Positions 42,862 through 59,365 of a stretch of DNA of 64,000 nt are shown here, one piece after another. This DNA is from Phyllosticta citribraziliensis (Eukaryota). The notes beneath the pieces are model-generated. The model was not told where the DNA came from and made no database searches. It worked only from the letters and a program-made list of their open reading frames with translations. The stretch's first letter is position 1. Every line of letters begins with the position of its first letter. The position numbers and the translations under genes were made by a program. The DNA lies in contig NW_027117349.1 of the NCBI RefSeq assembly GCF_038025025.1, positions 744,001-808,000 of the forward strand, written 5' to 3'.

Positions 42862-43511
42862 GATGTTGGATGAGGTTGCTTTGTCTGTGATGCTTGAGTT
42901 GAATGCGGCCGCTCTATATAAGTAGCGATGGCGACATGGTGGTGCACCAATGGTGGGGCAAGCGGCACCGATCGTAGCGGGGTGCTTAGAAATGTACACT
43001 GGCTTGTCAATCTCACGTCAGTGGACTCTGTGCTCCATCGATTTCCAGATTCGGAAAATATTCATTGAGACGATGGATCAGTGTCTAATATCCGTTCACA
43101 GCAAAAGAGCTCAGGCGCAGAATAAACACCCTGACTTGCGGGTGGTTTCCAACGTGAGGTTGTCAATTTTGGGGAAGTGAAGCTGTGTTTGGGCTCATAC
43201 AAACGCAAATATCGTAGATGAGGCCACTGGAGTTGAGTCTGGATGGCACCGCAGCTTGTTGTAATCAGCGGGACAGGGTCTTGCGTCGTCCGTTGAAAGA
43301 TGTCCGGTTGCTCACAGACACCACCGAAAAGCAGATGAGCCTGAGGCGCCACTCCTCGGTCTCACCTCGGAAGAATGAGCGTCCACATTGGATGACTAAG
43401 TCCTCCATTTGCCGAAGCCTGTCCGCAGAAGTTGTCTAAGACAGGCCCGCCTCTTCATTTGGAGCTTCAGCCTACACTCCACGACAACTCTCCCTCGACC
43501 CACCGGCAATC

Positions 43512-45561
43512 ATGGCTTGGCGCAACCAAGGCATCACCGGATCCAACAACATTCCCTTGGGAAATCGTCGTCGCTTTGGTGGCGACGGTGAGGACACTGG
43601 CTATGACCCGTCCGCTCCCGCCACTGGTCTTTCTGACCTCAAGCGCGGCCGGAGCCCGACGCGTGGTAAGCCTCTCTCCAGCTCTTCACTTTGGATGACA
43701 CTGACCAGAGCTTGATGTGATAGAATCTATCCTCTCCGATGGCGCCAAACGCCGCAAGAAGCGCAACCGCTGGGGTGACGCGTCGGACAACAAGGCCGCT
43801 GGCCTCATGGGATTGACCACGGCCATCACGGCCCACATGACTGCGGAGCAGCTCGAGGCTTACACCCTGCACCTGCGTATCGAAGAGATTTCCCAAAAGC
43901 TGAGGATTAACGATGTTGTCCCAGCCGATGGTGACAGGTACGTCCGCCTCCCCAACGCTTTCTGGCTTGAGCTCACACTGGGCAGATCTCCTTCGCCTCC
44001 GCCGCAGTACGACAACTTCGGTCGTCGTGTAAACACTCGCGAGTACCGCTACCGCAAGAAGCTCGAGGACGAACGTCACAAGCTTGTTGAAAAGGCCATG
44101 AAGATCATCCCGAACTACCACCCGCCCTCTGACTACAGGCGCCCAACTAAGACCCAAGAGAAAGTCTACGTTCCAGTCAATGACTATCCGGAGATTAACT
44201 TCAGTATGATTGCTAACCCTCGATCTCTAACCTTTCCATCTTGCACTCTCGTGTCGCACACAGTGTCTGTGGCATTCCATGTAATGCGCAGCGTTGCTAT
44301 CGTCACTAACCCACTCACTAATCCCGCACTTACGTCCTTGATGAGAACTACAAGCTAACAATAGGGTTTCTTCCTTACTAACAGTTGGACTCCTCATCGG
44401 ACCCCGTGGTAACACTCTGAAGAAGATGGAAACCGAATCAGCCGCCAAAATCGCCATCCGCGGCAAAGGATCCGTCAAGGAAGGCAAAGGTCGCTCGGAT
44501 GCTGCCCACACAAGCAATCAGGAAGAGGACTTGCACTGTCTCATCATGGCCGACACCGAGGAGAAGGTCAACAAGGCCAAGAAGCTCATCAACAACATCA
44601 TCGAGACGGTGAGTTCCATTCCTCTCCAGTTTCTAGTCAGACTTTCAACTAACACATACAGGCCGCATCCATCCCTGAAGGCCAGAACGAGCTCAAGCGC
44701 AACCAGCTTCGTGAGCTCGCCGCCCTCAACGGTACACTGCGTGACGACGAAAACCAGGCTTGTCAAAACTGCGGACAGATTGGTCACCGCAAGTACGACT
44801 GTCCCGAGCAGCGCAACTTCACAGCCAACATCATTTGTCGCGTTTGTGGCAATGCTGGACACATGGCCCGCGATTGTCCCGACCGTCAACGCGGCGCAAA
44901 CTGGCGCAACAACGACCGTGCCGCAAGACCTGGGGCTGGCGACCATGTCGACCGCGAATACGAGTCTCTCATGGCCGAGTTGGGAGGCGGCGCTGCTCCT
45001 GCTGCTATCGGTGGTTCTGGTCCTCAGCACCGCATCGAGGCGGGTCCAGGTGGCTATGATGATCAGGGTGATCGGGATATGAAGCCTTGGCAACGCGGTC
45101 CCACTGGTGCTGCTGCCCCCTGGCGCCAGTCCAGAGAGGAGCGTGATGGTGGATCGTCGGCTCCTCCTTGGGCCAGTGGTGGTGGCCGCGGCGGAAACGA
45201 CAGTTATGGTTACGGCGCACAATCTGGTGGTTATGGAGCTCCCGCTGCGCCTGGCGCTGCTCCTGGCGCTGCTCCTGGCGCTGCTCCCTGGCAACAACCT
45301 GCAGCTGTGCCTCCTCCTCCAGGTGGCGGTTATGGCTATGGCTACGGCTATGGAGCTGACCCCAACGCTGCCTATGGACAACCTGCCATGGGCGCACCTC
45401 CAGGCCTTGCTCCGCCGCCTGGCATGCCCGCCATGTACTCGGGCTACCCTGTGGCTCCGGGAACTTCTGGCAGCCCTCCTCCTCCGCCGCCTCCGGGCGA
45501 CGCTCCTCCTCCGCCACCTCCGAGTGACCAGCCTCCTCCACCTCCTCCCCCGGGCGCGTAA
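43512..45561 (+). CDS. MSL5: Branchpoint-bridging protein / splicing factor 1, 5 exons
   Basis: [23 protein letters not shown]2 ([22 protein letters not shown]), two CCHC zinc knuckles and a Pro-rich tail. Introns 43666-43723, 43938-43985, 44204-44384 and 44609-44661. Confidence 0.96.
44204..44384 (+). promoter_or_regulatory. 181-nt intron with six branchpoint-like CTAAY motifs and alternative splice sites (putative regulatory intron)
   Basis: CTAAC at 44213, 44227, 44306 and 44355, CTAAT at 44318, TACTAAC at 44376. Acceptors at 44364 (TAG) and 44384 (CAG). The motifs are seen directly, and the regulatory role is inferred. Confidence 0.65.
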
Positions 45562-47715
45562 GCGATTCATCAGTTCGTCAGATGTGATTGGTTCGACTTT
45601 GAGAATTCGGCACTTGGGATTCGGCGCGGTATTAGGAAGTAGGGACTACTAACTTCGTCTCGAGGTTTGTTCCGAGTTCCGAAAATGGATATCTTGCAAA
45701 GCATTGACCTTTAGCACTTGGGATCAGCAAGACTTTTTGCCCGCGCTGATTGCCGAGACTTGTCGATTCTACTCGTAGCCGCGATTTTTCTGGACATCCG
45801 GCGACGGCAGAGTGACTTGCGCAACGTTAGGTAGGTAGATGATTCAAAAGTGGGCGCGACTAGCACATTCACTCTTGACGTGCTTTTCTTCGTTCTTTCG
45901 CTTCCGCCTAATATCAAGGAGCTACTCTGCAATCATGAACCTTGGACATGAGACAAGAATCACGACATGCTCCGTTCGAATGCGCCAGTCCATCTCTGCT
46001 TGAGCTTGACATCATCTTCATGTGCTTAACGCTTACGACACATACCAAGAATGATGTAATTTTCGCAATCAGAAGCGTGTCGCTTCTCTCCTTTGGTTGC
46101 TCCTTAGATCATCCAACCTCGGACTCGGTCCAGCCGTTGTTCCAGCTGCGGAAAATTTCCATTCGCGGTGTTTGTGGTTGGCGCCTTGCTCCAAGGTCCG
46201 ACCTTGATCAGCTGCGCTCAGAGACGCTAGGTACTTGCCGCCACCTACCGTTTCCCAGTTTTGCGCTCGCAAGTACCCCACGGGGAAGATTGGCGGCGCG
46301 GTACAAATGCAACATGGCTGACACTGAACCTGTAAGTGACCACATGGTACCCACAAACGGCGAGATATCCATATTGTCGTCTGGTACCTAACCACTACCG
46401 TCCATCGTGGTCATCCGCATGTTGACCGAAGCGGATCTCCGCCTCATTTTTGAGCAATCTCTTGTCATCTAAGCCACGGTACCTGTCCACGAGATCACAA
46501 CAAGATGGATGTTGCTTTGGGGAGAGGACCAAGCAATATGCAGCTGCTTGGCCTTGGCCCAAAAATGTCCACAGATCTGGCCCGTCCCACATCGGACGCT
46601 CTGTCTGACTTGGCTCGTGTCTTCGACTTCTTGTCACCTTGGTAAGCCAAGAGATGTGCAGTCTGCTCGGTGCCATGTGCGAGCTTGCCCGCGCACGCTA
46701 ACAACGTCTTTTCAAGAGCTTCGATTCTGTTCTCTGGGCCAAAGTCAATGTGAGATGGCCAAGTACAATACCACGGAAGCTGTCAAACTTGGTACGGAGA
46801 CATTCTCGAATTTAATTCCCGCAGGACCGTCTGAGTTGCAAAGGTAACATGATTCGTGTTGTTTGTCCGCTTGGCCCGTAATGGCAGGCCAAGACGACCC
46901 GTCTGAGGTGGGCGGATCAATTTGAGGGCAAGTTGATCGGCAAACCGACCCCGCTCCTCACATTCAATGTGTGTGTGAGGACATTTGCTTTATCTGCACG
47001 GCACTCAAGGACAAAGCAACAGATTGCTCCAACAAAGGCACGGACTCGGACTGAACGACCTGAGAATTTCCATAACTGCTCCGTATTCGCATCCGAAAAA
47101 GGTTGAACAGCGTTCATGTCACCGTCCACGTCGGCTCGCGCGGTCAACCTTCTGCATGCGCCAATCAGGGAAATCGATTCTTGGGATATCTCTTCAATGC
47201 AGACTGACGGCGACACAGCCGATTTCGCGTTGTTCGTTCGCACCCAACCTAGCGGGCCTTGCAATTGCAGACCAGGAGGCCCAGGGTAGTCGAGTGTGGG
47301 CTCGATGCTCCGGGCCATGTGAGTGTGCGGGGTGTTGGTTCAGCCACCCCACGGGGTATGCCTGTCGGGCCGTCGTCTGGCTCTAGTTCCGTTTCAACGG
47401 GCTGAAGGGGCTCCTGATTGGCCAGAATGGTCGATGCTGGAGCGTTGCGACAGAGTTCCGCAGCCCTTGTTCTCCAAGCTACCGAGGCTCCTTTCTAGTG
47501 TCCATGGCCTTCATGAGAATGTAGCTATGGGTGGAAATGGGGAGGCTCATATTAAAGTCATTGCGGTGCATTTTCATCCCGCATTGCATCTGACATTCCG
47601 TCCCTGGGAGCTCTGATTGCTTCTTGAACTACACGTAAACGGCTGTGGTGGTGGCATTTTGCGCCTCGTTCTATCTCAAGATTTTGAAACCCATCTTACC
47701 CCACCAATCTTCACC

Positions 47716-58874: not shown

Positions 58875-59156
58875 ACCACCCCTAAGTGGGCGTCCAAATA
58901 AACGTTTTGGGCGTCCAAATTAAGTTATTTAATAGATACCTACTAGTAGTGAGATAATCTACTTAATTTAGGTATCTACCTACACACTTAGGGGCCAAAC
59001 CTGAGTTATATGCGTAGAACTTAGTAATACTCTATAAAGTACTTATATACTTAATACTATAAAAGATACGCCTAATTTACTAGTACTAGTATAAAGAGTT
59101 ATATATAAATTATTTAACTATACCTACTAAGCTTTTTACGCAATTAGTAGTAGTAA

Positions 59157-59193
<37 letters not shown>

Positions 59194-59365
59194 TAGGTAT
59201 AAGTTAGTTATTACCTAAAAATGCCTAAAATCTAGGGAGTTTTAGCCCCTAAGTATATAGGTAGATACCTAAATTAAGTAGATTATCTCACTACTAGTAG
59301 GTATCTATTAAATAACTTAATTTAGACGCCTAAAATATTTATTTAGATGCCTACCTGGGGGTGGT
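58875..59365. mobile_element. RIP-mutated non-autonomous TIR element (MITE), 491 bp, 125-bp TIRs
   Basis: 58875-58999 is the reverse complement of 59241-59365 with 12 mismatches, all transitions. AT- and TpA-rich island in a GC-rich background, with no ORF. Confidence 0.9.
59145..59193. repeat. (TAG)n microsatellite inside the MITE
   Basis: About 15 near-perfect TAG units. Confidence 0.9.

Follow-up and report, generated by a model that had tools for sequence, protein, structure and literature searches.

The window analysed here is a stretch of 64,000 nucleotides (nt) of DNA from Phyllosticta citribraziliensis (contig NW_027117349.1, positions 744,001 to 808,000, forward strand), and all coordinates are counted from its first letter. 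On its plus strand it carries a gene of the SF1/BBP (Msl5) type, whose third intron holds an array of copies of the branch-site motif CTAAY and is selectively retained in RNA. In every intron, the branch point is first contacted by SF1/BBP, and we know of no account of how cells set its level. The conserved array suggests that the third intron may act as a sensor through which the protein limits its own production.

The SF1/BBP gene and its third intron

The gene, its third intron and the elements within that intron are as follows.

43512 to 45561, plus strand: SF1/BBP (Msl5-type) gene, coding sequence from ATG to TAA, five coding exons, 569 amino acids
44204 to 44384, plus strand: intron 3, 181 nt, phase 1, running from GTATGA to TACTAACAG; conserved and selectively retained
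44204 to 44209, plus strand: 5' splice site GTATGA, non-consensus (A at +6)
44211 to 44217, plus strand: site S1, TGCTAAC, with its CTAAC at intron position +10; too near the 5' splice site for a branch point
44225 to 44231, plus strand: second 5'-proximal site, CTCTAAC (+24)
44304 to 44322, plus strand: mid-intron sites CACTAAC (44304-44310) and CACTAAT (44316-44322), forming a conserved TCACTAAC block
44354 to 44359, plus strand: probable true branch site GCTAAC, with the branch A at 44358, 26 nt before the 3' end
44363 to 44364, plus strand: proximal AG, whose G follows the branch A by 6 nt; skipped in RNA
44376 to 44384, plus strand: TACTAAC (44376-44382) fused to the AG of the 3' splice site (44383-44384)

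The coding exons lie at 43512-43665, 43724-43937, 43986-44203, 44385-44608 and 44662-45561 on the plus strand, leaving introns 1 to 4 of 58, 48, 181 and 53 nt, all four of which are confirmed as GT..AG joints by RNA contigs of a close relative. When Pfam profiles were run on the exons one by one, SF1-HH (PF16275, cut-off 29.3 bits) matched exon 2 with 48.3 bits (1.5e-12) and exon 3 with 88.9 bits (3.7e-25), KH-I_KHDC4-BBP (PF22675, cut-off 30) matched exon 4 with 71.8 bits (4.1e-20), and zf-CCHC (PF00098) matched two stretches of exon 5 (1.9e-12). The GxxG loop of the KH domain was read directly as IGLLIGPRG, and a proline-rich tail was read from the translation. Since an SF1-HH domain, a BBP-type KH domain and two CCHC knuckles are found together, the gene at 43512-45561 is an orthologue of SF1/BBP/Msl5.

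Intron 3 interrupts the KH domain before the GxxG loop, between INF and IGLLIGPRG, and CTAAY begins six times within it, at 44213, 44227, 44306, 44318 (as CTAAT), 44355 and 44378. The copies at the two ends of the intron are poorly placed for catalysis. Those at +10 to +27 are unusable as branch points because they lie too near the 5' splice site for a lariat, and the terminal TACTAAC is not the branch point for its own AG, its branch A being only 3 nt from the G. The branch site is probably GCTAAC at 44354-44359. A further copy, usual at +18 in orthologues, is degenerate in the window (CTCGATC). If the intron is kept, translation meets an in-frame TAA at 44356-44358, itself inside a CTAAC, after 245 residues, and the resulting product lacks the KH domain.

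An initial annotation, made from the letters of the window, had contrasted the 181-nt intron with others of 48-58 nt, which agrees with the 58, 48 and 53 nt given by the gene model and the RNA joints. The coordinates that it assigned to the six motifs, the split of the KH domain and the stop at 44356-44358 all hold on the sequence, as does its judgement that the first motif, at +10, is too near the 5' GT to be a branch point. The perfect TACTAAC that it placed at 44376 is present as well, but abuts the AG and is unusable as the branch point of that AG.

Chance does not readily produce such an array. Six CTAAY were reached by none of 20,000 dinucleotide-preserving and none of 20,000 mononucleotide shuffles of intron 3, the shuffled introns carrying means of 0.73 and 0.54, respectively, with a maximum of 5. 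Over the whole window, CTAAY occurs 33 times on the plus strand and 32 times on the minus strand, about 0.5 per kilobase (kb) on each, and intron 3 is the sole place on either strand with at least four CTAAY per 200 nt.

Conservation of the array and its site classes

Orthologues were gathered by scanning metagenome contigs with the KH exon, and the best 80 of 354 confirmed relatives were used, with amino-acid identities of 92-99% in that exon. The upstream exon is included in 77 of these 80 loci, being cut off in L034, L062 and L073. An intron at exactly the position of intron 3 was found in 75 loci and is absent from L001 and L045. Together with the window, the 77 loci gave 78 sequences, which were grouped into 52 lineage clusters at a third-codon-position identity of at least 80% in the KH exon; these lineages are not phylogenetically independent. 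Over both flanking exons, third-position identity has a median of 0.50 and a minimum of 0.34, and amino-acid identity stands at 0.95; the median of 0.50 indicates that synonymous sites are near saturation.

Intron 3 is present in 51 of the 52 lineages and is long in 49 of them (137-245 nt, mostly 175-205). Its motifs recur at the same places: among the 51 lineages, CTAAY starts within the first 12 nt in 47, at least two copies lie within the first 30 nt in 44, a copy lies 15-45 nt from the intron end in 47, CTAA lies within the last 9 nt and overlaps the 3' AG in 39, and the whole intron holds at least four CTAAY in 47. At the 5' end the anchored consensus reads GTATGATa.CTAACCCTCTAAC, and for the branch site it is ACTAACACtTAGcT. 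A CTRAY is found 12-55 nt from the end in all 49 long introns, the distance from the branch A to the 3' end being mostly 20-28 nt, and retention leads to an in-frame stop in 49 of the 51 lineages.

Introns 2 and 4, with median lengths of 53 and 52 nt, served as controls and carry 0-1 CTAAY, with two copies in 3 of 45 unique intron-4 sequences. By lineage, none has the motif among the first 12 nt or overlapping the 3' site (0/45 for intron 2, 0/38 for intron 4), and at least two CTAAY are present in 0/45 and 2/38, respectively. All the locus sequence (309,615 nt, both strands) holds one other cluster of at least four CTAAY per 200 nt. Introns 2 and 4 are also missing from several lineages represented by long genomic contigs, in which intron 3 persists.

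A few lineages depart from this pattern. Intron 3 is absent from L001 (2282-2722), where introns 2 and 4 are present, and its position is taken by ordinary introns of 97 and 52 nt in L003 (1359-1896) and L004 (1549-2041), both of which are without intron 2. No compensating array was found in the neighbouring introns of these three lineages, which are ordinary and carry 0-1 motif. In L063/L076, the 5' cluster is absent and four motifs are kept.

The splice signals of intron 3 are as distinctive as its motifs. Of 49 lineages, 31 begin this intron with GTATGA and 8 with GTACGA, while the neighbouring introns mostly begin with GTAAGT, GTATGT or GTGAGT; its 3' site is AAG in 34 of 49 lineages, compared with 1/42 for intron 2 and 1/35 for intron 4. 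With these non-consensus sites conserved at both ends and a strong branch site, intron 3 can be described as an intron with two non-consensus ends and one strong branch site. The copies of the motif also fall into classes according to the letter before CTAAC, which is A in 44/48 branch sites and 36/39 terminal sites, compared with 0/40 and 1/29 for the second (S2) and third (S3) of the 5'-proximal copies, where a pyrimidine precedes instead (YCTAAC in 40/40 and 27/29). TACTAA is found in 26 of 39 terminal sites, and CACTAAC is the commonest mid-intron site (30/61).

Published work is cited here by PubMed Central (PMC) number. The motif obtained for SF1 by crosslinking and immunoprecipitation (CLIP) is ACUNAC (PMC8624252), and the KH-QUA2 region of Msl5 binds UACUAAC, the yeast optimum (PMC4338336). 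The base preference of the classes suggests that the sites next to the 5' end may be weaker for BBP than the others.

Secondary structure was found to vary among the introns. Compared with shuffles, folding is somewhat better for the stretch that separates the 5' cluster from the branch site (mean z -1.05, with 20% of lineages below -2, n=49), RNAalifold on 33 orthologous introns returned 0 consensus pairs, and the intron of the window folds no better than its shuffles (z +0.38). A search of Rfam over 43400-45700 gave 0 matches at E up to 1. In many lineages (for example L002:2319-2498, L013:2307-2498 and L054), a lineage-variable stem-loop ends exactly on the mid-intron CACTAAC.

These results bear on the possibility that the array has no regulatory role at the RNA level, its motifs being duplication relics, a DNA-level protein site or part of an intron-borne small RNA, and retention reflecting the inefficiency of a long intron. 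Fungal long introns with weak sites are retained more often (PMC8624252), and the somewhat better folding of the middle segment is also in its favour. Set against this are motif positions that stay fixed relative to the splice sites, on one strand, across lineages saturated at synonymous sites, together with the empty Rfam search, the lack of a consensus structure and the z of the window intron. An intron-borne small RNA, such as a snoRNA or a member of an Rfam family, was rejected on the last three grounds, and the absence of any RNA-level role is considered the least probable of all the readings examined. A telomere-repeat-like reading of CTAACCCT in the 5' cluster was rejected too, as the other sites do not fit it and the placement of the motifs follows the splice sites, on one strand.

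Besides intron 3, the only other place in the window with three CTAAY within 200 nt lies at 59147-59207 on the minus strand. TACTAAC occurs four times in the window on both strands, twice within the SF1/BBP gene, and one perfect copy follows the coding sequence:

45647 to 45653, plus strand: perfect TACTAAC in the 3' untranslated region, 86 nt after the stop; tentatively a further site

Within 300 nt after the predicted stop, CTAAY is present in 15 of 31 lineages and perfect TACTAAC in 6 of 31, at 12-108 nt; the stop codons behind these counts were predicted crudely, and several of the 31 lineages are related.

Retention in RNA and the sensor-intron reading

RNA contigs came from a single study, in which four RNA-seq runs represent an organism with about 95-99% identity to the window. 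Introns 1, 2 and 4 were found only as GT..AG joints, their bin depth corresponding to the exon share alone, with zero intron cover. Intron 3 appears in two forms. The spliced joint 44203-to-44385 has depths of 19.3, 34.8 and 49.2 in three of the four runs and is lacking in the other, and the retained intron is found as a 240-nt contig (44174-44414) with depths of 25.4, 49.8 and 50.1 in three runs and, in the fourth, as the overlapping contigs 44081-44365 and 44337-44607 (depths 6.7 and 6.5). Because contig 44337-44607 continues across spliced-out intron 4, the retained form is RNA and not contaminating DNA. Retained contigs are present in 4/4 runs, and by contig depth, a crude measure, the two forms are roughly equal in abundance.

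The metagenome collection adds further cases. L045 (1-3061) is a fully spliced copy of L080, with blocks that are 100% identical and every gap removed, so transcript contigs do occur in the collection. L022 is a 2195-nt contig with a 28-nt leader and a 194-nt trailer, in which intron 3 (245 nt) is the sole intron and whose open reading frame encodes 575 amino acids once that intron is removed. L021 (1-1853) keeps intron 3 and is without five introns of its 82%-identical relative L077. Both L021 and L022 look like transcripts that retain only intron 3.

Two further RNA contigs in the same runs appear to come from a second, more distant organism. One enters intron 3, diverges from the window at 44219 and continues with 178 unlike letters, which looks like the retained intron of that organism; the other joins 43665 to 43738 with 14 other letters between them.

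Joints to any internal or alternative AG of intron 3 were not found among the RNA contigs, in which rare intermediates can be missed. This bears on the proximal AG, which follows the branch A by 5-7 nt in 48 of 49 lineages (ACTAACAC-TTAG) and is bypassed in RNA. Its use would extend the following exon by lengths that fall into the three classes modulo 3 in 23, 15 and 10 of these 48 lineages, the 10 in-frame cases being stop-free. As a general mechanism, a poison alternative 3' site at the proximal AG was therefore rejected, in view of the 10/48 in-frame cases and the lack of any such joint in RNA.

A complex intron, in which the 181 nt are removed in nested or consecutive steps, as in a stwintron, or through several alternative 3' sites, has the recurrent second AG in its favour. 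The first 59 nt also resemble a complete small intron (GT, CTAAC, and CAG at 44260-44262), and stwintrons are known in these fungi. The RNA contigs, however, show removal of the whole 181 nt or full retention, without partial joints, and no conserved internal donor is visible in the orthologue alignments; the stwintron was rejected on these two observations. Lineages differ in where the first AG falls (positions 6 to 139), the in-frame and stop-free cases of the proximal AG are near chance, and the 5' site of this intron cannot use the CTAAC at +10 as its branch point. A complex intron is accordingly regarded as very improbable.

Several proposals of the initial annotation can be judged from these data. 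It had suggested aligning the orthologous introns, which proved to be long, with an excess of CTAAY at fixed positions, in 49 of the 51 intron-bearing lineages, a pattern not shared by neighbouring introns. Short orthologous introns with a single branch point and constitutive splicing, the outcome that it named as contrary to its idea, are not what is seen. Retention, which it had proposed to look for in RNA, is seen selectively for intron 3 in the RNA contigs and in the transcript-like L021 and L022, as an observation and not a measurement. Its suggestion that BBP redirects 3' site choice fared worse, as the RNA contigs hold no alternative 3' joints and the proximal AG is in frame in 10 of 48 lineages. 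Its autoregulatory interpretation is thus partly supported.

The reading that we favour, with somewhat more confidence than doubt, is that intron 3 is a conserved sensor intron, mediating negative autoregulation of BBP through non-productive copies of the branch site. The gene product reads exactly the motif that is repeated, and the copies at +10 to +27 and on the AG are unusable as branch points, which makes a sensor of free BBP the most economical account. Such an intron would be built to splice poorly and to respond to the product of its own gene, through four features: a non-consensus 5' site, a usually weak AAG, one good branch site ACTAAC, and CUAAC copies unfit for catalysis. These copies comprise a tandem group of two or three at 10-27 nt past the 5' site, a further one or two in mid-intron and one on the 3' AG.

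When free BBP is scarce, the real branch site alone would be occupied, intron 3 would be removed and full-length BBP would be made. When BBP is abundant, the non-productive sites, including the weaker YCUAAC sites near the 5' end, would be filled too. Occupancy beside the 5' site and over the 3' AG may then hinder U1/U6 and the use of U2AF and the 3' site, or may instead trap a dead-end cross-intron complex; Msl5/BBP is known to bridge to the U1 small nuclear ribonucleoprotein (snRNP) (PMC3378887, PMC3753624). The intron would be kept, the reading frame would stop before the KH domain and no RNA-binding BBP would result, closing a negative feedback loop. Array-bound BBP probably holds the unspliced RNA in the nucleus, in line with the increase of cytoplasmic pre-mRNA upon loss of BBP or Mud2 (PMC2377449). 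The array, its conserved positions despite saturating divergence, the weak splice sites, the selective retention and the premature stop are observed; that BBP occupies the sites, that they differ in affinity, that the feedback is negative and what becomes of the retained RNA are inferred.

A more specific version, offered tentatively and with less confidence, is that the array may titrate free BBP through sites of graded affinity and may have been maintained ever since these filamentous ascomycetes radiated. The high-affinity ACUAAC branch site would fill first, and the YCUAAC copies by the 5' site and the UACUAA on the 3' AG would fill only at an excess of BBP, turning the intron off. The retained RNA might then form a BBP-tethered nuclear reserve that can be spliced later. 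Retained RNA that is exported would yield a KH-less fragment, consisting of the U2AF-binding N-terminus and the helix-hairpin, which may titrate U2AF65/Mud2.

Several observations weigh against the sensor intron. The occupancy of its sites by BBP is deduced from motif identity alone, and the sign of the feedback cannot be read from sequence, as a weak intron could be assisted by BBP recruited to those very sites. CUAAC is also complementary to the branch-pairing box of U2, and U2 snRNP might be sensed instead of BBP. The array is dispensable in some fungi, as three lineages (L001, L003 and L004) are without it, and the window's own intron has lost the +18 copy. Lineage counts overstate the number of independent events, given the shared ancestry of the lineages. 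The RNA evidence consists of assembled contigs, with one depth figure each, from one study of a relative of the window strain, and the assignment of L021 and L022 to transcripts is drawn from their structure. Moreover, a retained RNA about as abundant as the spliced form is unlike the result of efficient nonsense-mediated decay, and the decay step in the model of the initial annotation is therefore unsupported.

The question of sign leads to an alternative in which the array is a positive, or "priority", element. The extra BBP sites would be enhancers recruiting BBP, and hence U1 snRNP and U2AF, to a weak and long intron, so that the BBP message is still spliced when BBP is scarce, or needs BBP for its splicing in a feed-forward manner. 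The weak 5' and 3' sites are conserved, so intron 3 needs help, and yeast U1-stabilising factors act 10-27 nt after a weak 5' site. The bridging of BBP to U1 snRNP, mentioned above, would serve this function equally. Nevertheless, about half of the transcripts are unspliced despite up to seven sites, and the copy joined to the AG would more naturally mask that site than help it. An abundant core factor would also gain no homeostasis from regulating itself positively, and the known circuits of splicing factors are mostly negative (PMC3967051, PMC6547761). An enhancer array is therefore regarded as unlikely.

The second concern, that of U2, defines another alternative, in which the array senses U2 snRNP or the overall capacity of the spliceosome, or is bound by another protein of the KH/STAR type. 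The U2 branch-pairing box GUAGUA is complementary to CUAAC, and the conserved extension of the branch site, ACTAACAC(T)T, resembles an extended pairing with U2. Copies of CUAAC paired with U2 snRNA would form non-productive pre-spliceosomes, and SF1 output would be tuned to the state of the splicing machinery. Decoys resembling branch points (BP-like decoys) that affect U2-dependent 3' site use have been described in human cells (PMC5727392). The array sits, however, in the gene of the very protein that reads its motif, and no comparable cluster was found in the flanking genes of the 80 loci. Nor would sensing of U2 exclude BBP, since BBP binds first and is then replaced by U2. Sensing of U2 or of another protein is considered distinctly unlikely, less so than a complex intron and more so than an enhancer array.

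Relation to known systems and significance

Neither an SF1/BBP intron array nor autoregulation of SF1, whether in fungi or in other organisms, was found described in the full-text literature searched, which covers few subscription journals. In the Fusarium graminearum transcriptome preprint 10.1101/2021.11.08.467853, the strings SF1, BBP, branch and autoregulat occur 0 times, the available text of PMC6547761 names SF1 only in a reference, and that of PMC8113354 deals with FgRbp1 and the CAAGR motif, not with SF1. It is already known that RNA-binding proteins limit themselves through unproductive splicing and that decoy splice signals exist (PMC6097662, PMC5727392). New here would be that the branch-point reader itself is concerned, with pseudo-branch sites at the 5' site and the 3' AG as its operator.

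If the graded-affinity version is true, no autoregulatory circuit will have been described before it for the factor that recognises the branch point, and it would be the first case of pseudo-branch sites beside a 5' splice site acting as an operator. The sensor-intron reading would also imply that, where introns are tiny and alternative splicing is scarce, core splice signals can take on a second use as regulatory decoys. The proposed operator of conserved branch-site copies offers a testable model in genetically easy fungi, with the three site classes, the two weak splice sites and the proximal AG as mutational targets, and intron 3 may provide a natural reporter for free BBP or for early spliceosome capacity.

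Intron-mediated autoregulation is known in yeast from RPL30 and YRA1, and to our knowledge MSL5 of Saccharomyces cerevisiae has no intron. The yeast RPL22 paralogs likewise provide a case in which a protein controls the splicing of its own intron in a fungus (PMC13630204, PMC11585973). RPL22, RPL30 and YRA1 use RNA structures or exon length, whereas intron 3 of SF1 has repeated branch-site motifs. Detained introns, such as intron 4 of OGT, resemble the present case in that one intron of an otherwise spliced and stable transcript is kept at a high level and tunes output (PMC5588854, PMC12017769); these are mammalian and use other cis elements, and nuclear detention of the SF1 RNA is a proposal.

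The decoy exons of SF3B1 intron 4 and the BP-like decoys are related in principle, as non-productive signals in a retained intron have been proposed to engage early components of the spliceosome and so to block productive pairing (PMC6097662, PMC5727392). Those signals come from mammals and are either cryptic exons or BP-like motifs that precede the branch point, whereas the putative SF1 decoys immediately follow the 5' site or overlie the 3' AG. The available text of both accounts mentions no decoys that target the gene's own product, as proposed here for SF1/BBP.

The motif on the 3' splice site recalls Yarrowia lipolytica and other intron-poor species, in which ACTAAC adjoins the terminal AG. 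Even in Y. lipolytica, the most extreme species in PMC2483917, a spacer of no less than about 1-2 nt sets the branch motif apart from the 3' site (PMC2911113, PMC2483917). In that species the motif is the real branch point, whereas in intron 3 of SF1 the spacing is 0 or less (TACTAAC-AG, TACTAA-AG) and the branch site lies 20-28 nt upstream. A fused branch point and 3' site of the Yarrowia type was rejected, as all 49 long introns carry a separate CTRAY upstream, and the separate branch site implies that the terminal copy is not the branch point.

There is also a likeness to autoregulatory unproductive splicing, as known for SR proteins, hnRNPs, the Rbfox2 network, RBM39 and the intron retention of Chtop (PMC3967051, PMC10477243, PMC5175361, PMC6547761). 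In these systems, as here, the pre-mRNA of a protein contains that protein's own recognition motifs, a premature stop marks the alternative product and the arrangement is conserved. The SF1/BBP gene differs in that its product is the constitutive branch-point reader and in that its cis elements are copies of a core splice signal in unusable places. Its mode is also the retention of a whole intron in a short-intron fungus, with a feedback that is putative. Nonetheless, two hallmarks of unproductive splicing are found in this gene: its own motifs are present beyond chance and conserved, at the level of the motif, and an isoform with a premature stop is present in RNA.

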